DNA from: a bacterium
GTDB lineage: Bacteria > Hinthialibacterota > Hinthialibacteria > Hinthialibacterales > Hinthialibacteraceae
Length of the DNA stretch: 64,000 nt
Assembly: GCA_963662285.2 (NCBI GenBank)
Contig: CAXXMV010000006.1
Coordinates: forward strand, 416,001-480,000
Direction: 5' to 3'
Shown piece by piece: positions 14,175-53,060 of the stretch. The translations under genes and the position numbers were made by a program. A model generated the notes under the pieces. It had not been told where the DNA came from, did not search any database, and saw only the letters and a program-made list of their open reading frames with translations. Numbering within the stretch: position 1 is the first letter of the stretch; the number at the start of each line of letters is the position of its first letter.

Positions 14175-17100
14175 CTAGAACAGATGCCAATTCATAACTT
14201 TGGTATCTTCTTGAAACTCATAGGCTCCGATATCCGGCGCAATACTATAAGGGCGTTGGTTTCCGATGTAATCAACCAGTACATCAGTAGCGATCCCGGA
14301 ATCAATAAGTGGGGAAGTTACCGAAAGACTGACATTCAGGTTTGGCATATCTTGAAATTCCGGATTGATTGAAAAGTTAGTTTCAACCAGACTAGAAGGC
14401 AATTGCATCAAGTTGGAATGGCTTAATGTTGCTATTGAAATTCCATCAACCTGTAGGCTCTGTTCGGAATCCCAGATTATACAATTTATAATCTCTCCGG
14501 TTCCGCCTCCTTGATTGGGATTCTTTTCATAGATCCCGATGCCCGTCTTGCAGGAAACAATTGTGTTATGAATGATTTGCGCAACGCATTCATCTTTGAT
14601 CGCGATGCCAATTGCGCAACCGGCAATCACCGTATTGATAACCGAAGGAGTACTGCTTCCTTCAAGTGAGATTCCCTTATCTGCGCAATTTTCAATCCAG
14701 TTTCTTTCCATCAGCGGCGAAGAAAAGCCCAAATCAATTCCATCATCTTCAGAGCCTGAAATGACATTTCCACGAATCACGGAACCGCTTCCTAGTTCAC
14801 CATCAAAGTCGATAGCGTCACTGTACCCTATCGTATTCTCGAAGCGGTTGTTCTCTACAATGCTGAAGCAGTTACTGCAATGCAGCATCTCGCCTAAATT
14901 GAGAAATCGGTTTGCGCGAATGGTTAAATACGAATTGTGCGCCTCAATTCCGGCGCCTGCGCCATTGCCGAGTGAGATATCATGGATGAAACATCCAACG
15001 ACCTCTATGGTGCTGTCGTTAATTGTAATCGCAGCGGGATACTGTTTATTATTGTATCCGGTTGGACTGGTTTGGGTTAATTCTGCATAATGAATTCTGA
15101 CCGTTCCAACTGCTCTTTCTACAGCGATCACGCCCCAATTTTGTTCTGGATTCTCTGGAAGAAAACGTACCGGATGGTCTTCTTCTCCATTCACGATCAG
15201 AGTTCCGTAAACAATAATTGAAGCAGCTGGCGCCATCTTAAACGTAATACCCGGTTCGATTGTCAATGAACTTGTCGAGGGAATGATAATATTCCGATCA
15301 ACCGTTATCGGGCTTTGATCTGTCGTCCAGATTTCATCTCCTTGGATTTCCCACTCATCTCCAACTGGTTCAGATTGCCAATTGACAACAACATCCGTTG
15401 CTTCGAGAATCTGACCACCCGCATTCAAAGCTTCGATATGAAATGAATTTTTGCCCGGTTGAAGAGTATAGGGATACGTCCATTCCGCTTTCCAGGGGAC
15501 ATAGTTAACCGGTGCGCCGTTAACGTGTACCGAGTAAGTCAGAATCGCGTTGGCATTGCCTTTTACTTCAATATTCCTTGCTTCTTTAGTCGCTCCGTCA
15601 AGTTGCGCCGCCAATGAAAAATCGGAACTGTTTAAATCTACATTAGCGCCAAAAAGCGCCAGAACATTCTCGCCCTTCACGAGCAAGGCGGAAGCATTAT
15701 CAATGGAGAAAGATTCGGGGCTTTGCGCTTCATGATTTCCATCCGCAAAAGAGTTGAATGTTGGCGTCATCGAGTAATTGTTACGTGCGACTTCCGTTCC
15801 ATTCAAATAAGCCACAAAGCCATCATCATATAAAACGTGTAAAATTAAACTCGTTAAATTTTCAGGATCTTCGATTTGAAACGTTTTACGAATAAAAACC
15901 GTCGAATATTGATTCTGCATATCATTTAGAATAGTACGGTCATCGTTGTCTCCGTATCCAATGCCGATGGGGCCGGATTCCCATGAAGAATCATCGAATC
16001 CAATTTGATTCCAATCAGCAGGTAAAGCCTGTTGTCCACGGAAAAAGCGCCATTGCGCTCCATCGGGGATAACTACCAATCCACTTTCCATACTGACTTC
16101 AGCAGTTAGCGAGCGTGGGATTGACGATTGAATGAAATCCCTTAATTCTCTTGAAACTTGTTTCATATCGTTGCGGACATCTTCATTCGCAACTGAAGAT
16201 GTCCGGTCGATTATGGCATCCATTTTTTCCTGAGTAATTTCATTATCGAGGATGCTGGCCAATTCCGCATAATAAAACCGTGCTATACCTGGATGGGTTA
16301 GAAAACGATAGATGGCTGGAGTATCGTATTGAAAAATTGGTCGGAACGGCCGGATAATAACACTATCCAGATCCCAGGGTAACAGATAGAACAGATCATC
16401 ATTTGGATTGTTATACATATAGTAATCATCTCCCCGTTCTTTGGAGAGACCGCCTTCGAGATCATTAAGTATTTTCTTGAGAGCAAACCAGCGAAGCCAT
16501 TGATGAACATTGATATTCTGTTGCAATGCCTCAACAAACTGGTCGTCGCTTGTCGTGGAGAACGCGGTGCATAATCGGATAACATCGGAATAATCATCTT
16601 CCAGTGCGTTGGTGATTTTTTCGTAGTTGGATCGATACCGATTGGGATCATCGCCCCGGTAATCCAGATTGGCTTCTTCTATACCCCGGTACAGATTGCC
16701 GCTTTCATCCCCGAATTGACGACCCATCATGTCTTTATCGGTTCGTTCCATTTCAATGTAATTGGGAACAAATTTCTTGTTGAATACCAGCGAAACAAAT
16801 TGCGTGTTTGGCGCTGGCAGTTGAAGAAGCTTAAAACATTCCATGCCCACATACTGACGATGCGGTTCTATCGCATTTAGATTAAGTTTACGAACTGTAT
16901 CGAAATAATGGCTTAGAGAAAAATTTACGCGGTACGATTTAGGTTCTTTTCCTCTCGAACCTTTACCGCGGAATCGCACGCCGACGTTATAGTAGATAGC
17001 ATCATTATAAATGAATGAAGAATCAAGTTCTTCATTACTCTGTGCAGAGCGGGTGCGCAATGTACGCTCATCTTCATCCCGCATAATAATGCGATACAGT

Positions 17101-18026
17101 GGTATATCGGTGTTATAGACTGTATCATCAACTCGATATATTGCTGGCCGGTCCTCGCCTTGGATCGGAAAGAATCCACTATTCAAATCTGTATCAATCG
17201 CTTCAATATAAAATTCAACAACGCTTCCCGTGGTTTGAGCGGGAATATTTGTTCCCCAAATACTATCCTTGGCGGAACCATCGTTATGTTTACCATCATC
17301 GTACATTTCCGATGTTATAAAGAGAGTTTCCTGCTCGAGTTTGAACCATACATTGGCTTCTTGAATAGGTAGGGGATGATCCATCTGGCAGATAATGGTT
17401 ACTGTATCACCGCTTGTTGGCGATACAGGACTTTGGGTAACATCTTTTACAATAGGAAATGGTGAAGGAACCATTGAAGAGTTTGGTTTACCTGGAGTAC
17501 CTCCAATCGGTCCTTTCCGCCAACTTTCAGGTCGGTTGCTAGACATAAATGGATTTATTCGTTCGATTGATGCGCCCAATCCATCCGCTTCAGGCGGCCA
17601 TCCTCCTTCATCACGATATAAAACACTATCCACCATTTCATGTAAATCATTGAGTAAACTAATAGTCTCGCCGTCGTTGCTTAATTTCCCCTTGAAGGGT
17701 CCAAATGCAGAAATGTCAGGATAAAGTTTTTGCATTGCGACAGGTGATGCGGATACAACTAAGTAGCCCGCAGCTGGAAAAATAGTGTCCGGTGGAAAAG
17801 CAAACCGGATACCTTCATCGATTTGCCAGTTCGATATATCCACATCACTCGTAGTCGGATTGAACAACTCAATGTATTCATCATCATTATCCAGGGAAGA
17901 TGGATAATACATGATTTCATTAATGACAATTTGAGCATTGCTTGTAGAGACAAATATAATAGAAACCACAAAAATCAGGGGAAAAAGACGCATGACTGGA
18001 TGTTTCCTCTCGATATTTCGATACAT
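14175..18026 (-). CDS. Secreted lamin-tail domain + CotH kinase + beta-helix protein with C-terminal VxNWxLF tail
   Basis: IVINEIMY.P/EYIELFN (LTD); GVRFRG and LLPWDLD (CotH); LYDDGFVAYLNG; DAIDFD/DDGID beta-helix; APDIGAYE; ends KVMNWHLF. Confidence 0.8.
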   Translation of the reverse strand: MYRNIERKHPVMRLFPLIFVVSIIFVSTSNAQIVINEIMYYPSSLDNDDEYIELFNPTTSDVDISNWQIDEGIRFAFPPDTIFPAAGYLVVSASPVAMQKLYPDISAFGPFKGKLSNDGETISLLNDLHEMVDSVLYRDEGGWPPEADGLGASIERINPFMSSNRPESWRKGPIGGTPGKPNSSMVPSPFPIVKDVTQSPVSPTSGDTVTIICQMDHPLPIQEANVWFKLEQETLFITSEMYDDGKHNDGSAKDSIWGTNIPAQTTGSVVEFYIEAIDTDLNSGFFPIQGEDRPAIYRVDDTVYNTDIPLYRIIMRDEDERTLRTRSAQSNEELDSSFIYNDAIYYNVGVRFRGKGSRGKEPKSYRVNFSLSHYFDTVRKLNLNAIEPHRQYVGMECFKLLQLPAPNTQFVSLVFNKKFVPNYIEMERTDKDMMGRQFGDESGNLYRGIEEANLDYRGDDPNRYRSNYEKITNALEDDYSDVIRLCTAFSTTSDDQFVEALQQNINVHQWLRWFALKKILNDLEGGLSKERGDDYYMYNNPNDDLFYLLPWDLDSVIIRPFRPIFQYDTPAIYRFLTHPGIARFYYAELASILDNEITQEKMDAIIDRTSSVANEDVRNDMKQVSRELRDFIQSSIPRSLTAEVSMESGLVVIPDGAQWRFFRGQQALPADWNQIGFDDSSWESGPIGIGYGDNDDRTILNDMQNQYSTVFIRKTFQIEDPENLTSLILHVLYDDGFVAYLNGTEVARNNYSMTPTFNSFADGNHEAQSPESFSIDNASALLVKGENVLALFGANVDLNSSDFSLAAQLDGATKEARNIEVKGNANAILTYSVHVNGAPVNYVPWKAEWTYPYTLQPGKNSFHIEALNAGGQILEATDVVVNWQSEPVGDEWEIQGDEIWTTDQSPITVDRNIIIPSTSSLTIEPGITFKMAPAASIIVYGTLIVNGEEDHPVRFLPENPEQNWGVIAVERAVGTVRIHYAELTQTSPTGYNNKQYPAAITINDSTIEVVGCFIHDISLGNGAGAGIEAHNSYLTIRANRFLNLGEMLHCSNCFSIVENNRFENTIGYSDAIDFDGELGSGSVIRGNVISGSEDDGIDLGFSSPLMERNWIENCADKGISLEGSSTPSVINTVIAGCAIGIAIKDECVAQIIHNTIVSCKTGIGIYEKNPNQGGGTGEIINCIIWDSEQSLQVDGISIATLSHSNLMQLPSSLVETNFSINPEFQDMPNLNVSLSVTSPLIDSGIATDVLVDYIGNQRPYSIAPDIGAYEFQEDTKVMNWHLF

Positions 18027-18049
18027 GGAATACTCCTGGATATACTTTG

Positions 18050-18080: not shown

Positions 18081-18170
18081 TTAATAAAGTATATCAAGAA
18101 ATTAGTAATACATCGACCAATTTGTTCTCTCCAGAAAATAGATTCTGCATCATCAGCGAAATTACTAAAT

Positions 18171-20813
18171 TTAGTAAATAGACCATTCGTAGACCGGTGT
18201 GGTATCTACCAAGTCTACTTTAATGAAAAATCTACGTGCTTCTGACTGTGTGAAGGTGGAGGGATTATCGGCAATACCTCCGCTATCGGTTCCTGTAGTG
18301 GTATCGAAGACATAGTCAGGAGGAACCTCACCACGGTCGCTTGTACCTTCGCCTGCAAATCCAATGTAGACGCCATTCAACCATGCCAGCCCGGCATCGT
18401 CAGCTTCCAGCAGCAAATAGAGACCGGAGATGGAATCGTAATTGGCCGCATCGAATATAGTGCGCGTGTAAACGGTTTCATCCGCTGTTGTGAGTCGAGT
18501 TTCACCATTTTCACCGTCATTACCACCGTGGCCAATGGAAAATCCAATATCGGATTGCTGGGTCCAGCCGCTGTCATCAAAATCTCGCTGTTGCCAATTC
18601 GGTTCCTCTTCACCTGTAAGGTCATCGGATAAGACCACTTTCCAGTTAAATTGTGATCCCTGAGGCCAGCCGCCTTCCGCGCTGCTATCTTGAACATAAA
18701 TTACGCCATTGTTGTCGGATAAATCTGCTGTAGCAGCTAAATCACTGCTTCCATTGTCATCATTCCATAATCCAATAGCGAGTACATTACCCTGTTTGTA
18801 TAGGGGGACATCTTCCACTACCTCAAAGGGGGTAAGTGAAGTTGGACCAGTCGCGATTACGACATAGGAGCCATCGTCGCCTGAACCATTCCAATCACCA
18901 CTTGATGCATCCGGGGGAGAAGTCACATCATAAGTAAGCGTATTGCTTCCTCTAGCGCCGGTTAGAGTCCAGACAATGTTGCCATCAGCGTCAACACTGG
19001 CTGCTCCTGCGCTTTGGCTTACAATTGATGCAGTCCAGCCAGACGGTGGAGTTTCGGTGATGATTACGTCCGATTGCTGTCCATCAGGGATGTTCGCCGT
19101 CAACTGGATCCCTTCAAGCGCCTGTCCGGGTATAAAGCCGGATGATGGCATTGTACGGCTAAGAGTGAAAGGAGTTGCTTTTATAAGAATCTTAAAAGTT
19201 CGCGCTTCGGGCTGCGTGTAAGTGGATGGATTAGCTTCAATGCCTCCGCTGTCTGTTCCTGTTGTAGTGTCAAATACAAAGTTGGGTGGAACCTCACCCC
19301 GGTCGCTTGCAGCCTCACCTGCTAAACCGATATAGACGCCATTGAACCAAGCCAATGCGGCGTCATCGCCTTCCAGTTTCAAGGTTAATTCAAAAATCCC
19401 TTCATAATCGACGGCGTCAAAGATGGAGCGCGTGTACACGGTTTCTTCATCTTCGGAGAGAATAGTTTCACCATTTTCTCCATCATTACCGCCATGTCCG
19501 ATAGTAAAGCCCACATCAGTCTGGATAGCCCACCAGTTATCTTCCAGGGCGACGAAATCACGGTTCTGCCACCCAGGTTCCTCTTCTCCATATCCATCAG
19601 CAAAAAGCACGGTCTTCCATTGGAACACCGTGCCTTGCGGCCAACCGCCCTCTGCGCTGGTGTCCTGTACATAGATCACGCCATTGTTGTCGGACAATTC
19701 CGCCGTAGCGGCCAGGTCGGAGCTGCTGTTACTATCATTCCAAACACCGATAGCTAGAACATTGCCAGTTTCGAAGAACGGAACCAGCATTTGGATCAAG
19801 TCATCGCCGGTAACACTGAAAAATTCATTAACGGTTCCGCTGAAGGTGTTATAAGCGGCTGCGTTAATTCCCGCCTGGATCGAGTAAGTAAGTGTTTTCG
19901 ATCCGCTGAAACCGGGCAAGTTCCAGGTTATTTTACCATCAACCGCCACGCCGCCATCACTGATATTTTCGGCTGTCCATCCGAATGGAATATCCTCGAC
20001 TATCACTACATCACTGGTTCCTACCGCGAGCGATACATCCATAGAAATGTCTGAAGAGCCACCGGCCGAGATTATCTTCGTCGATATATCACGCACGCAT
20101 TGCGCAATAGGCACATTATCGAGCAGCACGGTAAGTTTTGGTTGATTTTCGGAGCCATACGATGAAATTACCCCATGACCACCTCCTGAGACGGGAATAA
20201 ATATCCAGCCATAGTTTGTTCCTCCATTGACGATATTTTGAATGGCATCGGTCATGTCAATTTTCAGTATATCGCCCTCGTTACTTGAACCGGGGCAGAA
20301 AGCAATAGCGGACGCGGCGTAATCCTCACCAGCCCGGGGAGCAACTCCGTCGCCAAAATCAATCAAATCACTGGCGTCATCAAAAGGAATCAGCAACTCA
20401 TGAATATCCGCGCTTCCTCCTTCATCATCAACTACTAAGTCTAATTGCGCGAGTTGAACGATGCTGTTTGGTGGAATCTGATTGACCCCGGTTCCTACGA
20501 TATCTTCGAACCGGATAAAACCATAATTGACTCCATTCGCATCAGAATCATCCCATTCCCATGTCTCATCAAATCCATGTACAGCGTCAGGAACTCCTGT
20601 TTGGAAGAAGGTGTCGTAAGTTCCCTCATAACCGTTTACTTCCTGTTGAAATTCATAGATTCCATCCTGAGCGTGAGCGAGTGTTCCCAATACTAATACT
20701 AAGCATAATGCGCCCAGAAAAATTACTGTTCCTTCATTGATAATTCCCATCGAGTGCTTGCGTGATTTGCCCATTATTTTTTCCTTTATTTTGAAATAAT
20801 TGATCTTATGCAA
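18171..20813 (-). CDS. Secreted acidic multidomain protein (DNRLRE-like N-domain, duplicated Ig-like and beta-sandwich modules) with C-terminal VxEWSIY tail
   Basis: Signal peptide ending AHA; FQQEVNGYEGT.DT/GFIRF/NYGWIF/PKLTV; two copies each of E..P.GWTA..I.W.L..LTY and GNVLAIG.WND...DD..AW.NGVYIG. True start may be MGKS (20774) or MGII. Confidence 0.7.
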   Translation of the reverse strand: MHKINYFKIKEKIMGKSRKHSMGIINEGTVIFLGALCLVLVLGTLAHAQDGIYEFQQEVNGYEGTYDTFFQTGVPDAVHGFDETWEWDDSDANGVNYGFIRFEDIVGTGVNQIPPNSIVQLAQLDLVVDDEGGSADIHELLIPFDDASDLIDFGDGVAPRAGEDYAASAIAFCPGSSNEGDILKIDMTDAIQNIVNGGTNYGWIFIPVSGGGHGVISSYGSENQPKLTVLLDNVPIAQCVRDISTKIISAGGSSDISMDVSLAVGTSDVVIVEDIPFGWTAENISDGGVAVDGKITWNLPGFSGSKTLTYSIQAGINAAAYNTFSGTVNEFFSVTGDDLIQMLVPFFETGNVLAIGVWNDSNSSSDLAATAELSDNNGVIYVQDTSAEGGWPQGTVFQWKTVLFADGYGEEEPGWQNRDFVALEDNWWAIQTDVGFTIGHGGNDGENGETILSEDEETVYTRSIFDAVDYEGIFELTLKLEGDDAALAWFNGVYIGLAGEAASDRGEVPPNFVFDTTTGTDSGGIEANPSTYTQPEARTFKILIKATPFTLSRTMPSSGFIPGQALEGIQLTANIPDGQQSDVIITETPPSGWTASIVSQSAGAASVDADGNIVWTLTGARGSNTLTYDVTSPPDASSGDWNGSGDDGSYVVIATGPTSLTPFEVVEDVPLYKQGNVLAIGLWNDDNGSSDLAATADLSDNNGVIYVQDSSAEGGWPQGSQFNWKVVLSDDLTGEEEPNWQQRDFDDSGWTQQSDIGFSIGHGGNDGENGETRLTTADETVYTRTIFDAANYDSISGLYLLLEADDAGLAWLNGVYIGFAGEGTSDRGEVPPDYVFDTTTGTDSGGIADNPSTFTQSEARRFFIKVDLVDTTPVYEWSIY

Positions 20814-21058: not shown

Positions 21059-21637
21059 TCATCCACCAGCAATGAATTTTCCATCTAACATGATGCGGCC
21101 TGAATTATATTGACCTCCCAAGCGAATAATATCTCCGCCGCTGCTTAATCCATTGCTGGTATCGTAACTTCGGATAGTTGTACCAAACGGAAAACCATCG
21201 TTTCCACTGACTTCTTCTGTCCGGTCCGGACCGGCGGAAATGATGATATAGGCCTGGGCTGGCCATTGTTTTCCTGCTTTAGAAGCATTCCCCGAACCAA
21301 ACTCAAAGGTGGGGTTATCTTCCGTGTAATTCCCGGCAGGCCCTCCGGCGAAAGCATCTCGCGGCAATGATGACATGTAAGCCATTGGAGTAGTCAGGCG
21401 GAATAGACCTCTTTCGTCCATTCCTCCACTGGGCCAGTCATGATCTTCCACATACGTGTTATTATCCAGATAATATTGTTCCAGCGCCGTAGAAAGCGCT
21501 TTCATATCCGCTTGCGTCCGGCTGACTTTGGCCCGCATTTGCGCATTCAGAAAATTCGGAACCGCAATAGCAGCAAGAATTCCAATAATTGCCACAACGA
21601 TCAACAGTTCTATCAACGTAAATCCATGTTTTTGCAT
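21059..21637 (-). CDS. Prepilin-type N-terminal cleavage/methylation domain protein (GspG-like pseudopilin) 1
   Basis: Class III signal KHG|FTLIELLIVVAIIGILAAIAVP; SAGPD motif. Start at MQKHG (21637). Confidence 0.9.
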   Translation of the reverse strand: MQKHGFTLIELLIVVAIIGILAAIAVPNFLNAQMRAKVSRTQADMKALSTALEQYYLDNNTYVEDHDWPSGGMDERGLFRLTTPMAYMSSLPRDAFAGGPAGNYTEDNPTFEFGSGNASKAGKQWPAQAYIIISAGPDRTEEVSGNDGFPFGTTIRSYDTSNGLSSGGDIIRLGGQYNSGRIMLDGKFIAGG

Positions 21638-21691
21638 TTCAGCAACCTGCCTATCTTCTAAAATATTTTTTGAATCACTCAACAAAATAAT

Positions 21692-21768: not shown

Positions 21769-22767
21769 TTAGTAAATAGACCAGTTGCCAACATCTGCAG
21801 GAGTTGCACCCTGCGACCCGGCAAAGGTCGGATCGCCAGTTGGATCCAAATTTTCGTCGAAACTGGTGTTTCCTGCCGTTAATGCAGGGGAACCAGACTG
21901 CAAATGAAGATCCATAGTTGTTGCGGTAAATCCCATCCCTGGAGCGGCAACATAAAGTGGATCTTCACCAATGCTATAATCATCGATCCACACGGCGCCG
22001 CCATTTACATCCAGACGGCCCATTAGCATACCCGTTATACCTGAAGGATCACTATCAAGTGGATCCCAACCAACGCAATGGACAACGCTGATAAAGCCCA
22101 ATGTTTCGATATCGTTGGCGCCGGGTCCGGCATAAAGAATGCAATTCTTCAATATGGCTTCTGATGTATCCGCCGCTTCAATGATATCGCTCATACCGAG
22201 GAACATATCGCAGTTGGTAAAAACTCCGATCGAACTTCCGGCTAAGTTCACTGTGTCGCCAGTTGCCCAGCCCAACACACAGAAATTAAACGCCGCCTCA
22301 GCTGTGTCATTAATATCAATTACGTTTTCCATTGCTTTCAATGCCCACACATTATTAAATGTGTTATCAAACGACCCGGCATCAAACTCAATAATCGAAT
22401 CTACCGCATTGATTGCGGTGAAATCCTCAAAGAGGCAACCATCAATGCCATCATCGATTTTGATGGCGGAATCGAAAGCGAATCCGCAGTCGAGAATCGT
22501 TGCTGTAGAAGGATCCATCCCCGATCCTGCGCCTCTCACTGTTGTGCCCGCAGGAAGGCGCATTAGATCCGGTCGACCTGTTTCATCTTCTTTGGGAACT
22601 AATTTGTAATAACCAGCTTCGAATGTTATCGTACTTTCGGCGTCGACGACTGTCTGAATAATTCCGACTACATCGTCGCCTGGTTTAATGGTCACATTTT
22701 GTTGGGCCATCGCAGAGAGCCCAATTATTGAGAGAATAAAGACCTGTATAGATATGCGTGTAATCAT
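21769..22767 (-). CDS. Secreted acidic beta-helix (pectin-lyase-like fold) protein with C-terminal VGNWSIY tail
   Basis: Signal peptide SAMA|Q; F.NC repeats; DPLYV..DLHLQSGSPAL.AG; paralogous to 22794. Confidence 0.65.
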   Translation of the reverse strand: MITRISIQVFILSIIGLSAMAQQNVTIKPGDDVVGIIQTVVDAESTITFEAGYYKLVPKEDETGRPDLMRLPAGTTVRGAGSGMDPSTATILDCGFAFDSAIKIDDGIDGCLFEDFTAINAVDSIIEFDAGSFDNTFNNVWALKAMENVIDINDTAEAAFNFCVLGWATGDTVNLAGSSIGVFTNCDMFLGMSDIIEAADTSEAILKNCILYAGPGANDIETLGFISVVHCVGWDPLDSDPSGITGMLMGRLDVNGGAVWIDDYSIGEDPLYVAAPGMGFTATTMDLHLQSGSPALTAGNTSFDENLDPTGDPTFAGSQGATPADVGNWSIY

Positions 22768-22793: not shown

Positions 22794-23753
22794 TTATTGT
22801 GCCGGTCCCATGGCGCCGGCGTATGTTTGGTTTCCGTCTGCATCTTTACCAATCGTGAGAGCGGGCGATCCTGCTTGTAAATGGAAATCCAAATCCAGCC
22901 AGAAAACGTGCGGACCAACATTAACATAAAGTGGATCACCACCGATTCCATCGATTTCATAGGCGCCGCCTTCGAAGGCGATTCCTCCTAATCCATCAGC
23001 ATCCTCGCCCGGAGGATCGAAGAATACGCTGTTGTGAATTTCTGTAAGACCGCTTCCGCCATCGACATCGTCTGAAAGACTTCCGGCATGGAAAATACAA
23101 TTTTTGACGATTACTGTTGAATTATCTTCATTATCGAAAATATCGCTGTCCCAGTCATAGAAATCACAATTCTGGAACAGGACGGCGCTATCACCTTCCA
23201 GATCAGTGCCATCATCTCCACCACGGGCGAAGACGCAGTTGTAGTAACGGATCATTTCGTCAAAAAATTCTGGATCACCCATCCCTCCGGTTCCATCGTT
23301 ATCGGCGCCGGAATCGCAAGCGAGAAACCAGCAATTTCTGATTTCTATGTTGAGTGCATCACTATTGCCTTCCACGGCTTCATCATAAATGTTGATCATT
23401 GTAAAACCGTCTATGACTATATCGACCGTGGCAATTTGGAAGCCTGTTGCGATAAACCAGGCTTCTCCATCCAGGATTGTCGCTGTTTCAGGATCCGTGC
23501 CTGGACCGGCGCCTTGCAGGGTAATTCCTTCGAATTCCGAGTGTAAATCAATACCTACTCCACTGCCGGGCTCGACTGGTACCAGGTCGTACCATCCCGG
23601 TGCAAAAATCACCGTCCCTTTAAATCCCGCCTCTATCAAAGCGGCTCCAATATCATCCCCAGGGCTTACATTCACAGTGGTTTGTCCGAAAACGCCTGCT
23701 GCTGACCCCAGGACAAGTGCGAATACTGCTATTGCCGAGGTTTTTAATCTCAT
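22794..23753 (-). CDS. Secreted acidic beta-helix protein, paralogue of 21769-22767, without the tail
   Basis: Shared blocks GAG.G.DP.TATILD and DPLYV..D.HLQ.GSPAL. Start at MRLK (23753) with RBS gaggag. Confidence 0.65.
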   Translation of the reverse strand: MRLKTSAIAVFALVLGSAAGVFGQTTVNVSPGDDIGAALIEAGFKGTVIFAPGWYDLVPVEPGSGVGIDLHSEFEGITLQGAGPGTDPETATILDGEAWFIATGFQIATVDIVIDGFTMINIYDEAVEGNSDALNIEIRNCWFLACDSGADNDGTGGMGDPEFFDEMIRYYNCVFARGGDDGTDLEGDSAVLFQNCDFYDWDSDIFDNEDNSTVIVKNCIFHAGSLSDDVDGGSGLTEIHNSVFFDPPGEDADGLGGIAFEGGAYEIDGIGGDPLYVNVGPHVFWLDLDFHLQAGSPALTIGKDADGNQTYAGAMGPAQ

Positions 23754-23797
23754 TCCTTTGCTCCTCTCTTTTTGATCATTTTTCAATTAATTCTTAG

Positions 23798-31954: not shown

Positions 31955-32593
31955 ATGCTTTGCAAAGCCTATGTGGACAGGACTGAAATTGTGAAAAAGA
32001 ATGCGTTTACTCTTATAGAACTGCTGATTGTAGTTGCGATTATCGGTATTCTGGCCGCTATTGCTGTTCCCAACTTCCTCAATGCTCAGGTAAGAGCTAA
32101 AGTATCCCGCACCAAAGCCGACTTACGGATGCTTGATAACCAGTCGGCCATCCGTCAAATGGATTGCGGACTATGGCTGATTGATGGGAATGACTGTGAC
32201 GGGAAAATAAATTCCAAGTGCTGTTTCGTTGATGGGTCGAGAATGTTCGGCAAGAAACCCAGTGAAGTGGGGATAGCCAATCCGTCTTTGGGGGATAACC
32301 ACTTCGACGGGCGGATATGGGCTTTGCTGACCACTCCCGTCAGTTATATTTCCTCAATTCCACACGATCCATTCACCAAAGGATTGTTCTACGGGTATGA
32401 GGATAAGGAGTGCTCGAATACTACTGGTACTCATTATTTCATGTTCGCCTCAGGTCCCGATGGCGCCCATGGCAACTGGGGTATGCCCTATAATTCCAGC
32501 AATGGCGTCTCATCAATCGGCGATATCTGGCGCTCCCGTAAACTGCGTGAAGGCGCTTACGATTGGATAGGCAAAGGTGATTCCTGGGAATAA
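31955..32593 (+). CDS. Prepilin-type N-terminal cleavage/methylation domain protein 2
   Basis: KNA|FTLIELLIVVAIIGILAAIAVP; LTTP..Y....P.DPF; SGPDG. True start may be GTG 31991. Confidence 0.9.
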   Translation: MLCKAYVDRTEIVKKNAFTLIELLIVVAIIGILAAIAVPNFLNAQVRAKVSRTKADLRMLDNQSAIRQMDCGLWLIDGNDCDGKINSKCCFVDGSRMFGKKPSEVGIANPSLGDNHFDGRIWALLTTPVSYISSIPHDPFTKGLFYGYEDKECSNTTGTHYFMFASGPDGAHGNWGMPYNSSNGVSSIGDIWRSRKLREGAYDWIGKGDSWE

Positions 32594-36946: not shown

Positions 36947-38494
36947 ATGTTTAGCAAATCGATTGTATTTAGAACCTGCTTTGTATATCTACCACTTTTC
37001 GCTGTATGTATTTGTTCAAATAGTGTGACTTATGCACAGGAAAGAACAGAGATTACTGCCTATATTCCGCATATCCCGGATATAGCTCCTCCTGTCATAG
37101 ATGGCTACCTGGATGATGAGGCCTGGATTTATGCGACCCAGGGAAATGCTACAGCCAATGCATCAGATTGGTATGTCCGGATCAATCCGGATTTCGATGT
37201 CGATGATCCGGTTCAGACAGGAGCGATAGCTGGTCAGAATAATGGAGATCGACCAGAAGATGATGCAGATGCTTCTTTCCGCGTATGGACATTGTATGAC
37301 GATGAATATCTCTATGTCGCAGTGGCAACGCAGGACTGGGATTACGTCAACCATCTACCTCCAGACAGCGTTAACGAAGCAACATGGTACGAAGATTCCG
37401 TGGAAATCTTTGTGGATGGTGATTTCAGCCGGACTCCGGGAAGTGTAAACAGCCTTCCTGATCCATCTGCAGAATATGCGACAGGCGGACAGTTCGTCAT
37501 AACTTCCGCTGGAGCGATTCGCCACGCAGAAGCAGGAAATCCCGTTTTTGGTGATACGCCGGAAGCGGATTGGTTCGCATCCGTGTTTGATAATGACAAC
37601 GCTGACGGATCGAATTATGAATTCCGCATAAAACTTTCAAAAATCGGAAATCCTGTTTTTGGTAGTAAAATCGGATTTAATGTCGCAATGAATGACGCCG
37701 ACGATTCCGGTTCTTCCAGCGCCGATTATCAAATTCTCTGGACCGGTGCAAGTCATCAAGAAGATACCTATGGGGCGCTCGAATTCGGTAGACGTTCCAT
37801 TACTGCTCCATTGATAACAGACGCAGTTGTAATCGACGGTAAAATGGACGAGTCGATCTGGTCCAGCGCTGCAACTGGTAAGGGTGGTATGCCTTATGGA
37901 CCATATACTGGCAGCACAGTGCCCAAAGACCTGGCCGATCTATCTTTCGACTTTTGGGTCATGCATGATGCGGACTATCTCTATGTCGCCTTTGATGTAA
38001 AAGACGAAGAGGTATTCGCGGACAGCACCGATCCGGAATCAGGAAACGGTAGCACATGGTATGATGACTCGGTGGAAATATTTATCGATGGAAATCACAC
38101 TCATACTTCTGGGCGAACCGGGCAGACCGGATTCCATTTTGGCGGCCAGCTCGTAATTACCACCAACCAATCCTGGCGGGATAACGAAGCCTCCGAAGTT
38201 GAGGTAGTCTTCTATGGTCCTGAAGATGATCGTGATTGGTATGCTCTGACATCATTGACCGATACTGGTTATATTGCCGAATATCGCGTCAAGAAGAGTT
38301 CCCTGTTCGATGATCCAGCCAGGGATGTGATCGGTTTCGACATCTGCGTCAATGAAGACGATTCGGATCCGCCCAACGAAAAGGATGCGGGTCAACAGAT
38401 TACCTGGAATGGTCATTGTCATAATGAAGCGTCTTATGGCGATCTGATTCTAGGCGGCCCTGCCACCAATGTGCTGGATTGGGAAGTATATTAA
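36947..38494 (+). CDS. Secreted tandem CBM9-like (DOMON-type) sugar-binding protein with C-terminal VLDWEVY tail
   Basis: Signal peptide TYA|Q; two copies of IDG..D..W / D..YLYVA...D / WY.DSVEIF.DG / IGF....N.D. Confidence 0.75.
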   Translation: MFSKSIVFRTCFVYLPLFAVCICSNSVTYAQERTEITAYIPHIPDIAPPVIDGYLDDEAWIYATQGNATANASDWYVRINPDFDVDDPVQTGAIAGQNNGDRPEDDADASFRVWTLYDDEYLYVAVATQDWDYVNHLPPDSVNEATWYEDSVEIFVDGDFSRTPGSVNSLPDPSAEYATGGQFVITSAGAIRHAEAGNPVFGDTPEADWFASVFDNDNADGSNYEFRIKLSKIGNPVFGSKIGFNVAMNDADDSGSSSADYQILWTGASHQEDTYGALEFGRRSITAPLITDAVVIDGKMDESIWSSAATGKGGMPYGPYTGSTVPKDLADLSFDFWVMHDADYLYVAFDVKDEEVFADSTDPESGNGSTWYDDSVEIFIDGNHTHTSGRTGQTGFHFGGQLVITTNQSWRDNEASEVEVVFYGPEDDRDWYALTSLTDTGYIAEYRVKKSSLFDDPARDVIGFDICVNEDDSDPPNEKDAGQQITWNGHCHNEASYGDLILGGPATNVLDWEVY

Positions 38495-45124: not shown

Positions 45125-46576
45125 TTAATAAGTCATCCAATCAGAAACGCCGACTTGAACAGAACCCTGCGACCCTATATAACCGCCATTACTTCCAGCA
45201 GTCAGTACTGGCGAGTTTTCCTGTAATTGGAATCCTGCACGGCTGAATGAGTCTGGATCAGTGGTTGGGTTAACATACAGTGGATCGACGGATAGTTCAT
45301 TATCCAATGTGACATTAAGAAATGCTTCGAATTCAGTTAGTACGTTGCAATAGGATGCGATAAGCGAATCCTCTTCGAAATAATCAAAATCATCGAGTTT
45401 ACCATTGAGCATCCCGGCCACTCCCACCACATTGGTATTGCTTACATTGATTTTTCTATCTTGATCGATAGGCGGTTCGAGACGTAACTCGAAGGATCCC
45501 GGCGCGTCGACCAGGTTCTGATAAAAATCGCAATGTTCGATGGTGACGATGGCTTCTTCACCATTCTCCTGCACAAATAGACCTTCCTGCAAACAACCAG
45601 CGATGATGCAGTTGGTCATATTGACATTACCATGCTTGACCCTGAGGCCGATGTTTCCCGAACCGATGATGGCAACATCGTCAAACTCAGCGAGGATAGG
45701 AAATTCTCCTGTCGCTTGTTTATCGATGTTCACATTACCACGGTTGCCTAAGAAAGAGCAGCGTCGGAAAACGATCTTGCCGCCGCCCAATGTTGCGGGA
45801 TTCTGACAATTGGTAATTATAGTGTCTTCGATCAGATGCCCCGCGCCGCTCGCTGTCCGGGCGGGATCGGCGGGAGAGGGCAGGGCGGCGCAATCCATCT
45901 CGATCCCGTTACCATTGCAATTCTGAATAGTGCATCCCCGTAGGGTGATGGAAGGATCGGTGGGAACGCCCTCAGTGGCTTTGATGACTTGGACGCCATA
46001 GTGGCATTCTTCAACCAGGCAATTATCCATGACGATGCCGACAGGCGCCAGAGTCGCTCCATATATGATGATGCCGAAATTAAATCCTTCGTAGGCCGTT
46101 CCTTCTCCACCGGCGCCCCGGATAGTGCAGTTGCGCAGCGTGGTATCATTGCAATCCATCAAAGCTATGGCGCTGGAGATATCGTTGGCGGATACTTCGG
46201 TGGTTTGATTCTCGAAGATGATGCCTTCAAACACAGCCCCCACGCACCCTGACGCAAGAACGCCAAGACGGTCAATTCCTGGGATGCCCAAGTCTCCCAG
46301 GCGTTCTGCAGTGTTTACCGCACGGATAGTAGGCGTTTGACCTTCAGCGGCTTTCAGGGTGAACTGAGCCGCAAAACCAGCCCCGGCGCCAGCCGTAAGG
46401 TCTTCTTCATAAACAGCGCTATCCAGGATGATAATCTCATCGCCATTGGCGGAGGTGGCGACGGCAATCTGGATGCTGTTGACATCACCGGATCCGTCCT
46501 GCGCTACAGTAATCGTCCCGGCGAAAACAGGTGATGCCATAACGATGAGCAGCATAATTACAAATGTAATTCGCAT
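45125..46576 (-). CDS. Secreted acidic right-handed beta-helix protein with C-terminal VSDWMTY tail
   Basis: Signal peptide VFA|G; ITVAQDGSGD..SIQ.A; repeated .NC.I turns; DPLYV..FQLQENSP.L.AG. Confidence 0.7.
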   Translation of the reverse strand: MRITFVIMLLIVMASPVFAGTITVAQDGSGDVNSIQIAVATSANGDEIIILDSAVYEEDLTAGAGAGFAAQFTLKAAEGQTPTIRAVNTAERLGDLGIPGIDRLGVLASGCVGAVFEGIIFENQTTEVSANDISSAIALMDCNDTTLRNCTIRGAGGEGTAYEGFNFGIIIYGATLAPVGIVMDNCLVEECHYGVQVIKATEGVPTDPSITLRGCTIQNCNGNGIEMDCAALPSPADPARTASGAGHLIEDTIITNCQNPATLGGGKIVFRRCSFLGNRGNVNIDKQATGEFPILAEFDDVAIIGSGNIGLRVKHGNVNMTNCIIAGCLQEGLFVQENGEEAIVTIEHCDFYQNLVDAPGSFELRLEPPIDQDRKINVSNTNVVGVAGMLNGKLDDFDYFEEDSLIASYCNVLTEFEAFLNVTLDNELSVDPLYVNPTTDPDSFSRAGFQLQENSPVLTAGSNGGYIGSQGSVQVGVSDWMTY

Positions 46577-49245: not shown

Positions 49246-49282
49246 TCCCCTCTCCCGGCGGAAGAGGATTAAAGTAAGGGGG
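49246..49282. repeat. Degenerate REP-like family A copy
   Basis: tcccctctcccggcggaagaggattaaagtaaggggg. Confidence 0.45.
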
Positions 49283-49345
49283 AAATATCACCTACCCCAA
49301 GCGTAGGATGGATCAGTCTCACCGACTCATCAAAAGGCCACTATT

Positions 49346-50422
49346 ATGAAACAACTCATCAGTTATATAGCTCTATCCGCTCCCGCTACGCGCCGGTATG
49401 CGCAAGGCGATGAACCATTACTGCGGCCGGAAATCGGATTCACTCCGCAGTGGTTTCATCAATCCCTGGGAATAGATTTTGGCGGGCAATGGCATAATAA
49501 TCCAGCGTGTCGACGTGACGCGATTATTGCTATGCGCCAGGAGATTAGAAGACGGTTTCCTGATACTTCTATTGGTTTAGTGAATCAACCGGATGAGCCG
49601 CTTGATTTGCTGACTGGAACATTTGGCGCTAATACCATCGCGGCGATTTATGGAATCCCTATACAGTATTTCTCTAACCAGTGGCCTACTGCTATAAAAA
49701 AATATTTCAGCAATGAACAAATTGATCAACTGGAACCTCCGCATCTGGTGGAAAACTCATTTTTCAATAAACTGATAGAGCAACTCGATTGGATTGCTGA
49801 TCATGAAGGTAAAATCACGGGTTTCATCAATTGGCAGGGAATATTGAATAATGCGCATCGGCTGCGCGGCGAAAAGATATTCATCGATCTGATTGATGAT
49901 CCTGATAGATGCTTGCAATTGTTTGAATGTATATGCGCCACAATGATCGAAGCGGCTCAACTAATTCAGGAACGCCAGCGCAAAAGCGGCGTGGATATCC
50001 GATTTTTCACAATCAGCAATTGTCTGGTTAACATGATCTCGCCCAAACATTATGAGAGATTGATTCTTCCCTTTGATCGTAAAATTGCGGAATCATTTGA
50101 ATGCATCGGCATACACAACTGCGCGTGGAAAGCCGATCCCTATTTGAATGCTTATGCTTCCATCACCAATGTCGGCTATATTGATATGGGGATGGAGTCC
50201 GATCTGAACCGGGCGCGAGACCTCTTCCCTGAAACTCGTCGAGCGATTATGTATCCCCCGACAAAACTGCTCAATGGATCAAAAGAGGAAATAGAACAAG
50301 ACCTGCTTCGCATTGCTCAAACCTATGCTCCCTGCGATATTGTCTTTGCCGATATCGAAGAGAATGTACCCGATGATAAAATCCTCTTCATCATCCAGGC
50401 ATGCCAAAAAATCAGTACTTGA
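49346..50422 (+). CDS. Uroporphyrinogen decarboxylase family-like protein, function unknown
   Basis: QGILNNAHRLRGE.IF.D...DP, NMISP..YE..ILPFD and IHNCAW motifs. Confidence 0.65.
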   Translation: MKQLISYIALSAPATRRYAQGDEPLLRPEIGFTPQWFHQSLGIDFGGQWHNNPACRRDAIIAMRQEIRRRFPDTSIGLVNQPDEPLDLLTGTFGANTIAAIYGIPIQYFSNQWPTAIKKYFSNEQIDQLEPPHLVENSFFNKLIEQLDWIADHEGKITGFINWQGILNNAHRLRGEKIFIDLIDDPDRCLQLFECICATMIEAAQLIQERQRKSGVDIRFFTISNCLVNMISPKHYERLILPFDRKIAESFECIGIHNCAWKADPYLNAYASITNVGYIDMGMESDLNRARDLFPETRRAIMYPPTKLLNGSKEEIEQDLLRIAQTYAPCDIVFADIEENVPDDKILFIIQACQKIST

Positions 50423-50447
50423 GCGAAACAGGTTTATTTCAAATAAA

Positions 50448-50486
50448 CGCCAAGGGCAAGAGCGCATTGCGCTCAGCTCTTGATCA
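50448..50486 (+). repeat. Palindromic repeat family C, copy 1
   Basis: cgccaagggcaagagcgcattgcgctcagctcttgatca; overlaps the pilin stop codon. Confidence 0.8.
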
Positions 50487-51170
50487 ACCGCCATCAAACC
50501 CACCGCCGGAACGATACGAGATATTACCAGCGCTTCTCAATCCATTTGAAGATTGATAAGGAATCCCGCGGAATCCGCTTTGGACGATGCTGCCATCCGG
50601 CCCGCTTCCAATCAGCGCAAATTCCCCCCGGGTTAAAGGTCTGACAGAACCGGGAAAGCCCTGGTTGCTTGGTTGATAGGCGTCAATATTATGATTATGG
50701 GGCGACCATGCATCAGTGCAGCGGGGATCATGATCGACATAGGTATAGGTATCAAGTTGGCCGCTCCATGTTTCACTAGCGGCTTGTTTTTTTGGCTCCC
50801 GTAAAAATGGGTCTTGGGGAATCGATGCTATGTAGTTAGTCGGCGTGGTCAGCGGCGCCATAACATCACGCATTAACCGGGTGCCTTTCTGAGGATTAGC
50901 GATTTTACTGAAATATTTATTCAGAAGCCCCAGGCATATCTCACCATCATCATCCCAGATATCAATCAGCAGGAATCCACGGTCAATCCTGAACGACTCG
51001 ATGGCGGTTCCCAGGTTCTTGGTATCAGCCTGTGACCGGGCCACTTTGGCGCGGGTTTGCGCGTTAAGAAAATTGGGCACGGCAATCGCCGCCAGAATGC
51101 CGATAATCGCAACTACAATTAACAATTCTATAAGCGTAAATGCTTTGTGGTTGTAATAATTTTTATTCAT
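50484..51170 (-). CDS. Prepilin-type N-terminal cleavage/methylation domain protein 3
   Basis: HKA|FTLIELLIVVAIIGILAAIAVP; LTTP..Y....P.DPF; GSGPDG; Y.SSNG. Confidence 0.9.
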   Translation of the reverse strand: MNKNYYNHKAFTLIELLIVVAIIGILAAIAVPNFLNAQTRAKVARSQADTKNLGTAIESFRIDRGFLLIDIWDDDGEICLGLLNKYFSKIANPQKGTRLMRDVMAPLTTPTNYIASIPQDPFLREPKKQAASETWSGQLDTYTYVDHDPRCTDAWSPHNHNIDAYQPSNQGFPGSVRPLTRGEFALIGSGPDGSIVQSGFRGIPYQSSNGLRSAGNISYRSGGGFDGG

Positions 51171-51310
51171 GGTTCATCTGGCTCTTATCTTTTTGCTTTA
51201 AAATTTTGTGTCTATTGAGTCTTAACCACATAATAGCAAAAAGACAGTTGAGATGTCGAGGGATCAGGTACTAAATGCTTATATCCACACTAACTGAATC
51301 GACGGACGGG

Positions 51311-51347
51311 CGCCAAGGGCAAGAGCGCAATGCGCTCAGCCCTTGAT
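51311..51347 (+). repeat. Palindromic repeat family C, copy 2
   Basis: cgccaagggcaagagcgcaatgcgctcagcccttgat, a direct repeat of the copy at 50448. Confidence 0.8.
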
Positions 51348-51413
51348 GCGATCACTTCCGATTTTATTAAACTATCGTCACTGAATTCCAGCGGGCGCTT
51401 GCATTGCAGAGGC

Positions 51414-53060
51414 TTAATAAATAGACCAGTCCATTACTCCTACGGCAATATCGAAATTATCCGAAAAAACGACTTGCCCATCGACCAGAACTTCGACGTT
51501 ATCAAATTGAGATGTTATACCGATTTCGGTGCTGCCCGCCAGACCGGGATATCCAGTGCGTTCGCTGTTGGATGCATTATCCCAAAGCGGTAGTTCGAAA
51601 ATGTCGGCGCCGCCTTTTTCGACGATGCTGCCAGTCACAAGAGTACCTTCACCAATCAGGGTCATTGTGTACCATTGATTGAGTTCCCAGGCGTAATCGC
51701 TTCTCGAAGCCCATTCGACATGATCGTTGAGCATATCCACGCTGTTCACGTCGTCATGAAACATGAGGTTCAGCGCCATCTCACTGGAACCACTGGCATC
51801 CGGTTCGGGATTGCAGCGAATCATAACTCCTGACCGGGAAAGGTCATCGTCCACCCAGCTGGTCATCATTACATCGGCGCGAATGGTATAGTCTTGACCG
51901 CCAAAATCCTTCTCAATCCAAATGTGTTTCGGATCGAGACCCGAATCGGCGTAATGCTTCAAAACTCCATCGATGACCGCCCAGACGCCGTTCGCGCCGA
52001 TCTTCCAATCCGGTCCCAGACCGATTGCATGTTTTAACATGACATCCTTTAAATTGATGGATTCGCTTCCCTTGGTTACGCTGCCACAGAGTAGGCTGAT
52101 GATGGGAGCGTCTGCAGAAGGTATCTCCAGATCATAACTCATTTCCGCTGAACCGGTCTCATTACCAATATCCCAGATAATTTTATTATCGGTGATTTGG
52201 GCGTCGCCAACCGTGGTCACGATATTGGTCGCTGTCAAACCTGCGGGAATATTTTCTTCCACTGTTGTCGGGGTTGTGGGGTCAATCAACCCATCCAGAT
52301 TGATTTTGATGCCGGAAACGGTAGTTCCACCTTTATATATAATTTGCGGAACGGTGCGTTGCGCCAAAAAGGGAATCACCGTCAGTTTGACATCAGGAAA
52401 GTAACCGATAGTCGAGGCGTCCCTCTCGTTAGAGGTTACGGCCAATCCGACGTAAACCGGATCGGATAGATTATCCAGCACTCGCACCTCGTGCAGAATC
52501 GGCTGACCCGTATCGTAATCAATGTAATAACTCATTAAAGTGTTGCCCAGGCGGACCAGCTGGGCGCCGTCCTGTATATCGAAGGGGATCAATTCATGCC
52601 GCCAGTGATAGTTGGATTTACGGTCCAGAACCCCGCCCGCCGTCTCGCGCCATTCAGTATCCAATTGACCGTCGTTACGTACGAACATATCGAAATGCAC
52701 GGCGTCCGTGTCGAGAGAATCGCGAATCATCAAGGCCACTTTCACTTCGTTGCTTGAACTCTCGAAGGGATCGACCTCCAGCCTTGCGGAAATCGTAAAC
52801 GGCCCGCTCATTTCCTTGTAAACAAAATGAAAGTTGTCCGTTGCATCGCCGATTCCCGCTCCGCTGCCGGTTACTACATACTCTGCGTTTTGGAAAACGG
52901 CTGTTCCGGGAACGCCAACATCTCCTATGTCTATGTTATTTTCGAAAATTCCTACTTGTGAGAATCCGGGAATTGCCGCGAACAGAAACGCTGTTACAAC
53001 AACACAGCCCAAAGAAATCATTCTATTTCTTCTCATTGTCTTATCCCCTTTTACAAGCAA
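51414..53060 (-). CDS. Secreted ConA/lectin-like multidomain protein with C-terminal VMDWSIY tail
   Basis: Signal peptide GFS|Q; GIFENNIDIGD..GSGA.I...DNFHFVYK..SG.F and VYVGLAVTS; EE.IP.G..IIW..SYD Ig-like module; QFDNV. Start probably MRRN (53036). Confidence 0.65.
   Translation of the reverse strand: MLVKGDKTMRRNRMISLGCVVVTAFLFAAIPGFSQVGIFENNIDIGDVGVPGTAVFQNAEYVVTGSGAGIGDATDNFHFVYKEMSGPFTISARLEVDPFESSSNEVKVALMIRDSLDTDAVHFDMFVRNDGQLDTEWRETAGGVLDRKSNYHWRHELIPFDIQDGAQLVRLGNTLMSYYIDYDTGQPILHEVRVLDNLSDPVYVGLAVTSNERDASTIGYFPDVKLTVIPFLAQRTVPQIIYKGGTTVSGIKINLDGLIDPTTPTTVEENIPAGLTATNIVTTVGDAQITDNKIIWDIGNETGSAEMSYDLEIPSADAPIISLLCGSVTKGSESINLKDVMLKHAIGLGPDWKIGANGVWAVIDGVLKHYADSGLDPKHIWIEKDFGGQDYTIRADVMMTSWVDDDLSRSGVMIRCNPEPDASGSSEMALNLMFHDDVNSVDMLNDHVEWASRSDYAWELNQWYTMTLIGEGTLVTGSIVEKGGADIFELPLWDNASNSERTGYPGLAGSTEIGITSQFDNVEVLVDGQVVFSDNFDIAVGVMDWSIY

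Follow-up and report, generated by a model that had tools for sequence, protein, structure and literature searches.

Introduction

To our knowledge, the C-terminal sorting signals described so far in prokaryotes are tripartite, consist of a folded domain, as in the type IX secretion system (T9SS), or coincide with the last strand of a beta-barrel. Very short signals that work at a free C-terminus and are read by a soluble receptor domain include the tripeptide of peroxisomal targeting signal 1 (PTS1) and PDZ-binding motifs. Here we describe a short peptide, hereafter the tail, with the rough consensus T-x-V-x-D-W-S-L-Y, which ends six secreted proteins encoded in a 64-kb stretch of bacterial DNA (the window; contig CAXXMV010000006.1, positions 416001-480000) and many others in the same genome (G000; 7.29 Mb, 44% GC, 8 contigs). 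PTS1 and PDZ-binding motifs act in a eukaryotic or cytosolic context, and our analysis connected neither a TPR nor a PDZ receptor with the tail.

The tripartite signals comprise LPXTG/sortase, PEP-CTERM/exosortase, GlyGly-CTERM/rhombosortase and MYXO-CTERM/myxosortase, as defined in 10.1101/2023.06.07.544157. Of the traits given there, the tail shares the C-terminal site, the many copies per genome (110-161 genes), at least three near-invariant residues, the N-terminal signal peptides and the diversity of the carrier proteins. It lacks the transmembrane (TM) segment that follows the motif in tripartite signals, as well as their Arg-rich cluster, and the whole signal spans only about nine residues. 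None of 105 tails had a hydrophobic 19-residue window in the last 40 residues of the protein. Without a TM segment, the tail has no means of staying in the membrane within reach of an intramembrane or membrane-anchored sorting enzyme, and no candidate cognate sorting enzyme was found for it. PEP_CTERM had no match in G000, a result that should be read with caution, as the control genomes were silent too and exosortase was not part of the search.

A second point of comparison is the type IVb pilus (T4bP), where the flexible N-terminus of TcpF is a terminal peptide that binds the minor pilin TcpB and acts as the secretion signal, according to PMC9565799. Like this signal, the tail is a short, flexible terminal peptide on Sec-exported proteins, with genes that can lie beside type-IV-filament pilin genes. 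The T4bP signal differs in being N-terminal, on one protein and paired with one tip pilin, whereas the tail is C-terminal, occurs on about 160 proteins and is found in a genome with about 105 GspG-like paralogues. CofJ and CofB have reportedly been studied as a similar T4bP pair of cargo and minor pilin. We would liken the tail to the T4bP signal by analogy, without placing it in that system.

Results

A nine-residue peptide is tied to the C-terminus of secreted proteins

The original prediction described a seven-residue ending on six window proteins, V.[DNE]W..[YF]$ as a strict regex, and all six endings and their stops were confirmed (Table 1). Across the whole genome, this regex ended 55 of 11,847 open reading frames (ORFs) of at least 80 residues, compared to 0.08 expected at C-termini on the basis of 19 internal matches in 2,753,229 positions. 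A relaxed form, [VIL]xxWx[ILVMTFCA][YF]-stop, ended 110 of 5,396 non-overlapping genes, a rough set obtained by our own greedy ORF calling rather than with a gene finder. When variants ending in H, carrying one extra residue (+1) or replacing W with F were included, the family grew to about 161 signal-peptide-like genes, or 3% of the gene set.

Among the 110 relaxed tails, position -9 was T in 76 and V in 19 (95/110 together), -5 was mostly D, N or E, -3 was S in 45, -2 was L in 66, and the last residue was Y in 84 and F in 26. V, I or L at -7 and W at -4 were present in all 110, both positions being fixed by the definition of the regex. There was no K or R in the tail logo, and chains closed on Y, F or H. 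The broader consensus is [T/V]-x-[V/I]-x-[D/N/E]-W-x-[L/I/M]-[Y/F/H]-COOH. The original description needs one correction: the conserved unit has nine residues, not seven, and -7 can be V, I or L.

We then counted the core motif by its offset from the C-terminus. Against an expectation of 0.34 per offset, there were 124 matches at offset 0 (with H allowed as the last residue) and 20 at +1, while each of the remaining offsets up to 40 had 0-2. The extra residue was E or D in 12 of these 20 +1 variants. The tail is strictly tied to the C-terminal position. Its codons vary synonymously across the genomes compared; therefore, selection acts on the peptide.

Sub-variants of the tail in G000 fall into groups, including H endings (...DWMLH, ...EWSLH; 19 genes), endings with an extra acidic residue (...DWFLYE) and ...NWEL[YFM][RK]. 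This grouping suggests several receptors or graded affinity.

Tail carriers are acidic and unrelated in fold

As originally claimed, inspection of the six window carriers showed signal-peptide-like N-termini and a high Asp/Glu content (D+E 12.6-17.5%, pI 4.05-4.42). The proposed enrichment for signal peptides was also seen genome-wide, with 103/110 tail genes scored as signal-peptide-like compared to 2,017/5,286 other genes (Fisher p = 4e-34). A further TM-like stretch was present in 2/110 carriers, while 3/105 core carriers were Tat-like and 8/105 lipobox-like. All 105 core carriers had a pI below 5.5 (median 4.17, K+R 5.8%), compared to a median pI of 5.58 and K+R of 10.3% for 1,198 other signal-peptide-like proteins. 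The tail family accounted for 86 of 141 signal-peptide-like proteins with a pI below 4.25, 35 of 101 at 4.25-4.5, 30 of 189 at 4.5-5 and 3 of 848 above 5. Among the 65 most acidic proteins that remained, about 20 bore still looser tail variants. The tail is restricted to signal-peptide-bearing acidic proteins.

Single-linkage grouping by BLAST places the 110 carriers in 63 groups; requiring alignments to extend to the C-terminus raises this number to 82. Within the window, the different folds named in the original prediction were found for CotH/LTD, CBM9 and beta-helix proteins, while the ConA-like fold was matched only by sub-threshold look-alikes of carrier 6 in an Atlas search (best 0.82). 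Carrier 3 has no Pfam match of its own, and Beta_helix was found on its homologues. These homologues keep the tail, except P0024, which ends early, and P0036-P0039, which have an extra domain of about 170 residues and no tail.

One family has 19 members of about 257 residues. Its domain ends in '...IIDNIVV-GP', after which linkers differ in length by at most six residues; every one of the 19 members retains the tail, down to 41% identity. In the search with the 257-residue lectin-like carrier of this family, all 17 homologue matches keep the tail, and no anchor swap occurred among its close homologues; swaps appeared only in the wider search with carrier 1. An AlphaFold2 model of this carrier (mean predicted local distance difference test score, pLDDT, 85.8) has a concanavalin A-like sandwich fold, with legume lectins and calreticulin as Foldseek matches (probability 1.00, TM ~0.5). 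The last strand covers residues 235-245, and tail residues 253-257 are unpacked with a pLDDT below 50, so that the tail is predicted to be unstructured. The 63 unrelated groups, a tail-less paralogue of carrier 3 (Table 1), the variable linker and the unpacked model show that the tail is no integral strand of a domain common to the carriers, and it is independent of the fold of its carrier.

The tail is conserved in two deep lineages

We scanned 35 genomes of the class of G000 with a degenerate DNA pattern for V-x-[DN]-W-x-x-Y-stop, using the same pattern read backward as a control. There were 462 matches compared to 9 for the control; 34 of the 35 genomes were positive, with 2-37 matches each, while six out-of-class genomes had one match in total. 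A collection with one genome per species was scanned for T-x-V-x-D-W-S-L-Y-stop, which gave 60 stretches. Of these, 45 were the ends of ORFs of at least 183 residues with signal-peptide-like starts, and one more (L036) was only 29 residues long under the start rule used. The remaining 14 were dropped as not being real ORF ends or as lone matches in unrelated taxa (Neisseria, Synechococcus).

The true matches sit in metagenome-assembled genomes (MAGs) labelled Candidatus Sumerlaeota, Hinthialibacteria OLB16 or 'Omnitrophota', or simply 'bacterium'. G000 is nearest to low-GC MAGs, and loci from high-GC Sumerlaeota-labelled genomes match its proteins at just 26-40% identity. Among 41 genomes around the Sumerlaeota-labelled G041, 26 were positive, with 103 matches compared to 3 for the control. 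The tail is conserved across two deep lineages. The original description of the tail as lineage-specific therefore stands in that it is confined to these two lineages, but its range is wider than implied, covering a whole class and a distant Sumerlaeota-labelled lineage.

One genome of the class, G028 (65% GC compared to 44% in G000), had no strict match in 5.0 Mb. In a 400-kb sample of this genome (L061-L080) there was one relaxed tail-like ORF end and a reduced number of pilin-like genes (2), although the pilin family of the genome is expanded; its secretin count of 7 is similar to that of G000. We rejected G028 as a tail-negative genome for phylogenetic profiling, as it is tail-poor rather than a clean negative. 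With carrier 4 as query, no homologues were found in G028, G026, G041 or G042.

These data bear on whether the tail has a function at all. It could be a chance pattern, a DNA element that recurs where genes end, or the final strand of a shared domain, and the shortness of the motif is the one point in favour of such an origin. Against it stand the excess of strict endings over expectation and of class-wide matches over the backward-read control, the synonymous codons, the 63 unrelated groups, the unpacked conformation in the model, and the retention of the tail by homologues down to about 40% identity. We consider the probability of a non-functional tail negligible.

The tail lacks the defining features of described sorting signals

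As the original prediction anticipated, no described system covers the tail: no NCBIfam or Pfam model matches it in the six carriers. The T9SS C-terminal domain (Por_Secre_tail, TIGR04183 / PF18962) is a folded Ig-like domain of 70-100 residues, whereas the tail is a nine-residue peptide that is unstructured in the model. The two are alike in their cargo, which consists of secreted adhesin-like and carbohydrate-active proteins, and in occupying the same slot after beta-helix plus choice-of-anchor Q or CotH/LTD regions. TIGR04183 / PF18962 had no match in the six carriers. Por_Secre_tail and SprA_N had no match in G000, although all 14 control genomes were equally silent, so this does not imply absence; a home-made hidden Markov model of the T9SS C-terminal domain found one marginal ORF in G000. 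The dockerin is a duplicated Ca-binding segment (PF00404) for which the tail is too short, and the six carriers had no Dockerin_1 match.

The beta-signal of outer membrane proteins (OMPs), which is read by the beta-barrel assembly machinery (BAM), shares with the tail an aromatic last residue at the very end of the chain and a lineage-specific flavour. A tail that mimics this signal and targets BAM or another Omp85-family machine would account for both features. However, the beta-signal has alternating hydrophobic residues at -3, -5 and -7 and is found on barrels. In G000, 23 other signal-peptide-like proteins, putative OMPs, end in the canonical alternating signal (...GVGYSF, ...KLTYRF, ...VEVVYSF), and only 2/105 tails fit that pattern. 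The carriers are soluble proteins with ConA-like sandwich, beta-helix, CBM9 and CotH folds, and the tail lies outside any barrel, in agreement with the original statement that the carriers are not beta-barrels and the tail is not a BAM beta-signal. Mimicry of the beta-signal is very improbable.

Full-text literature searches for DWSLY, DWTLY and NWSLY gave zero occurrences, and the matches listed for WSLY were unrelated. No description of the tail was found in literature on Sumerlaeota, Hinthialibacter/OLB16, choice-of-anchor domains and sorting signals. In the main text, the paper describing Hinthialibacterota (PMC9324843) contains neither 'C-terminal' nor 'secretion', and a paper on Sumerlaeota (PMC8092238) does not contain 'pili', 'pilin', 'sorting' or 'secretion system'. 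The tail fails the defining features of every known family of sorting signals tested, yet behaves like one by position and distribution. Collectively, these findings strongly support the tail as an undescribed TM-less C-terminal tag, with no description found in print.

Known export and docking modules occupy the slot of the tail in homologous proteins

We compared the last 280 residues of carrier 1 with 1.84 billion representative proteins, which gave 2,378 matches at E <=0.001. From the best 150 of these, we tabulated the 69 that reached query residue 256 or beyond. In these 69 proteins, varied endings come after a conserved '...D[IL]GA[YF]E'. The tail or a close variant follows this module in P0045, P0046, P0047, P0048, P0049, P0052, P0056 and P0064. 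Other proteins have C-terminal domains of about 75-105 residues; of five tested, three passed the 23-bit cut-off for T9SS type A (TIGR04183), namely P0169 (35.9 bits), P0147 (34.0) and P0127 (33.8), while P0065 and P0194 were below it. P0071 carries a dockerin (27.5 bits compared to a cut-off of 22.9). P0169 (CotH, beta-helix and T9SS domain) and P0071 (three LTD domains, CotH, beta-helix and dockerin) are built like carrier 1 but end in a recognised export or docking module where carrier 1 has the tail. NF041518, the choice-of-anchor Q model, precedes the T9SS-type domain in P0065, which is below the TIGR04183 cut-off, and other endings in P0087, P0088, P0099 and P0110.

Nothing speaks more strongly for sorting or anchoring than this equivalence of slot with a T9SS domain or dockerin, but the argument is one from position only. 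It strengthens the original suggestion of export or surface anchoring, which we continue to infer rather than observe.

The dockerin in P0071 also raises the question of whether the tail acts only after export. It would then be a miniature docking peptide, with export occurring independently, that binds a surface receptor such as an OMP, an S-layer-like scaffold or a glycan non-covalently on the outside, as a dockerin binds cohesin. The presence of the dockerin in the same slot of a homologous LTD, CotH and beta-helix protein is consistent with this, as are the short, exposed and aromatic-rich nature of the tail and a cargo of lectin-like, CBM and beta-helix proteins, for which a place on the cell surface would be of use. 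However, there was no sign of a cohesin-like or other many-to-one partner, T9SS domains fill the slot more often than dockerins among the proteins tabulated, and the strict need for the chain end is not a dockerin feature. A docking peptide with independent export is unlikely, though this explanation overlaps with the sorting or anchoring tag that we favour and does not exclude it.

Two other endings recurred after the same module. Eleven of the 69 tabulated proteins (P0087, P0088, P0066, P0171, P0094, P0051, P0077, P0082, P0189, P0193 and P0126) had an alternative '...YLPL[VIL]xR' module end, roughly F-x-x-Y-L-P-L-[VIL]-x-R and TM-less. These proteins come from other organisms, and the ending, which no NCBIfam or Pfam model covers in P0087, P0088 or P0082, may represent a further short tag, as yet undescribed, of a different lineage. 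P0110, P0105, P0100, P0099, P0053, P0168, P0055 and many longer proteins have a recurrent longer C-terminal domain ending in '...FYR[ILV]...', for which the models scanned with P0110 and P0099 gave no name.

GspG-like pseudopilin genes are enriched beside tail genes

G000 encodes a family of 105 pseudopilin paralogues of about 207 residues with an N_methyl motif and a weak T2SSG match. Their N-terminal helix is identical (FTLIELLIVVAIIGILAAIAVPNF), and SNGxxSxGDI is conserved at the C-terminus. The family stands alone in its clear enrichment at a distance of up to two genes from a tail gene (24 observed compared to 7.9 expected). Direct adjacency to a pilin gene was seen for 16/110 tail genes, 60/1,075 other signal-peptide-like genes and 117/4,106 of the rest. 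With tail variants included, 24/105 pilin genes touch a tail gene, and 22/25 pairs are co-oriented, often with short or overlapping gaps. In the window, carrier 2 lies downstream of the pilin gene at 21059-21685 on the same strand, and this pilin gene itself follows carrier 3 (Table 1).

Similar arrangements occur in other genomes, where 11/46 tail loci hold a prepilin gene, including the Sumerlaeota-labelled L019, L031 and L040. In G043, a pilin match lies 36-93 bp downstream of, or overlaps, 4/14 tail ends. Orthologues of the window pilin (21059-21685) were informative in 19 genomes; in 7 of these, the gene directly upstream ended in the tail (5) or in its W-to-F variant (2), and one further orthologue was separated from a tail gene by a single gene. 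Three or more cargo families are represented among the genes upstream of these orthologues. Sumerlaeota-labelled genomes of 3.5-3.7 Mb had 50-60 pilin matches, compared to 1-5 in out-of-class genomes.

G000 has the machinery that a type-IV-filament route would require, with eight secretin-domain ORFs, at least three clusters resembling a type II secretion system (T2SS), and Pil-type and Tad-type clusters. An AlphaFold model of the pilin was confident for its N-terminal helix alone (mean pLDDT 51.3), and the globular part was set aside. Complex prediction for carrier 3 (residues 22-332) and the pilin (residues 44-208) gave no answer (score 0.00, no controls) and speaks neither for nor against binding. 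We also considered recognition by the PDZ domain of GspC and rejected it; among the PDZ proteins of G000, which include HtrA/DegS-like and S2P-like ones, none resembled GspC.

PDZ domains read free C-termini, and the commonest tail ending, S-L-Y-COOH, is similar to class I PDZ ligands and to the YxF ligand of DegS from OMPs. The tail could accordingly be a ligand of a periplasmic PDZ protease, of the DegS/HtrA type or a C-terminal processing peptidase, and serve processing, turnover or stress sensing rather than sorting. G000 encodes a DegS-like protease (TM anchor, trypsin-like domain and one PDZ) and about seven other PDZ proteins, and the strict position dependence of the tail fits such a ligand. 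However, S occupies -3 in fewer than half of the tails (45/110), +1 variants exist, and the conserved T/V at -9 and V at -7 exceed the usual PDZ footprint. PDZ proteases are near-universal (14/14 control genomes) and the tail is confined to two lineages, while a degron or stress signal would leave the restriction to acidic cargo, the slot equivalence and the pilin neighbourhood unexplained. We regard a PDZ protease ligand as improbable.

Discussion

A proposed model for tail-dependent sorting

We consider it probable that the tail is a lineage-specific, TM-less C-terminal sorting or anchoring tag; its function in export or anchoring, and its receptor, are inferred. In our model, about 160 acidic carriers (lectin-like, beta-helix, CotH, CBM and others) would be exported by Sec and then fold in the periplasm. 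Each folded carrier would present an exposed nine-residue C-terminal peptide on a short flexible linker. A receptor would read the free chain end, tolerating at most one extra, usually acidic, residue, and would commit the protein to passage across the outer membrane, to non-covalent surface display, or to both.

Our best guess for the route, which we think is rather less likely to be right than wrong, is a type-IV-filament (T2SS-like) machine with GspG-like pseudopilins as the tail-binding partners. The expanded pseudopilins, whose genes often adjoin those of the cargo, would then bind or carry tail-bearing proteins, much as the terminal peptide of TcpF hooks TcpB. More doubtful again is its fullest form, in which the tail would be the first linear, portable signal of a T2SS-like pathway. 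Here, about 100 dedicated pseudopilins per genome, often co-transcribed with cargo, would bind the free peptide, and cargo would be pushed through the secretin or kept on the pseudopilus as a cellulosome-like 'enzyme-decorated pilus'.

Several observations weigh against the sorting tag or its link to pseudopilins. Only about 15-23% of tail or pilin genes adjoin each other, leaving most tail genes with no neighbouring pilin, and pilin genes are also near other secreted-protein genes at about twice background. The tail-poor G028 still has 53 pilin candidates. A pilin subfamily specific to tail-adjacent genes was rejected, as these pilins are scattered on the tree (22 changes compared to 21.8 in shuffles). 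We did not use the correlation between tail and pilin counts across genomes (rho 0.41), which was no stronger than that of either count with genome size (0.50 and 0.62) and was uncorrected for kinship. No receptor was identified for the tail. A free carboxylate exactly on Y or F is not strictly needed, as there are 20 +1 variants, and 33 endings are H or non-aromatic. Finally, the signal peptide test was a crude, loose heuristic that called 38% of other genes positive, and our gene calls came from a greedy ORF set rather than a gene finder.

A nine-residue TM-less tag on 2-3% of the proteome would represent a different design from described signals, akin to a PTS1 or PDZ ligand in the bacterial envelope. 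The tail provides a simple rule for exoproteome prediction in two poorly known, uncultured, polysaccharide-degrading lineages, marking about 160 proteins in each genome as likely to be extracellular or on the cell surface, and it is small enough for transplantation. If the pseudopilin link is true, it would bear on the long-standing question of how T2SS-like systems choose their substrates and could account for the large pseudopilin expansions in this and related phyla. The tail would then become categorically new among C-terminal sorting signals.

Features of the window

The carriers, the three GspG-like prepilin genes and associated features are listed in Table 1. For carrier 1, the choice-of-anchor Q region was assigned with NF041518.

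Table 1. Tail carriers, prepilin genes and associated features of the window. Endings are given with the coordinates of the peptide plus stop.
Feature	Position	Strand	Length (aa)	Description	Nine-residue tail	Seven-residue ending, confirmed
Carrier 1	14175..18026	-	1283	LTD + CotH + beta-helix + choice-of-anchor Q	TKVMNWHLF, 14175-14204	VMNWHLF, 14175-14198
Choice-of-anchor Q region, carrier 1	14211..14336	-		Residues 1231-1272; NF041518 31.9 bits (cut-off 25); ends two residues before tail		
Carrier 2	18171..20813	-	880	LRR_adjacent + DNRLRE match below cut-off	TPVYEWSIY, 18171-18200	VYEWSIY, 18171-18194
GspG-like prepilin gene	21059..21685	-	208	83 bp downstream of carrier 3, co-oriented		
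Carrier 3	21769..22767	-	332	Beta-helix	ADVGNWSIY, 21769-21798	VGNWSIY, 21769-21792
Tail-less paralogue of carrier 3	22794..23786	-		34% identity; ends where carrier 3 linker begins		
GspG-like prepilin gene	31955..32593	+	212	No tail gene adjoining		
Carrier 4	36947..38494	+	515	CBM9-like	TNVLDWEVY, 38465-38494	VLDWEVY, 38471-38494
Carrier 5	45125..46576	-	483	Beta_helix	VGVSDWMTY, 45125-45154	VSDWMTY, 45125-45148
GspG-like prepilin gene	50484..51170	-	228	243 bp downstream of carrier 6, co-oriented		
Carrier 6	51414..53060	-	548	No family match	VGVMDWSIY, 51414-51443	VMDWSIY, 51414-51437

The window encodes other secreted proteins. A 1306-residue protein at 10085-14005 (-) has a PQQ/BamB-like beta-propeller together with a methyltransferase domain, and a malectin domain at its C-terminus; the family to which it belongs has 9 paralogues and occurs near tail genes three times, compared to 0.84 expected. 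Two secreted proteins, at 28731-31721 (-) and 34309-36417 (-), match the 'hydrazine synthase alpha middle domain' (PF18582, E ~1e-25). One of the two also has an F5/8 type C domain, and the window has no other sign of anammox. At 5342-5932 and 6035-6628 (+) lie near-identical ORFs of 196 and 197 residues, both of which start ...MPI[LP]KEKE.Y.YKDYCGWPDEERWE.IDGVAYDMTP and represent a recent tandem duplication.

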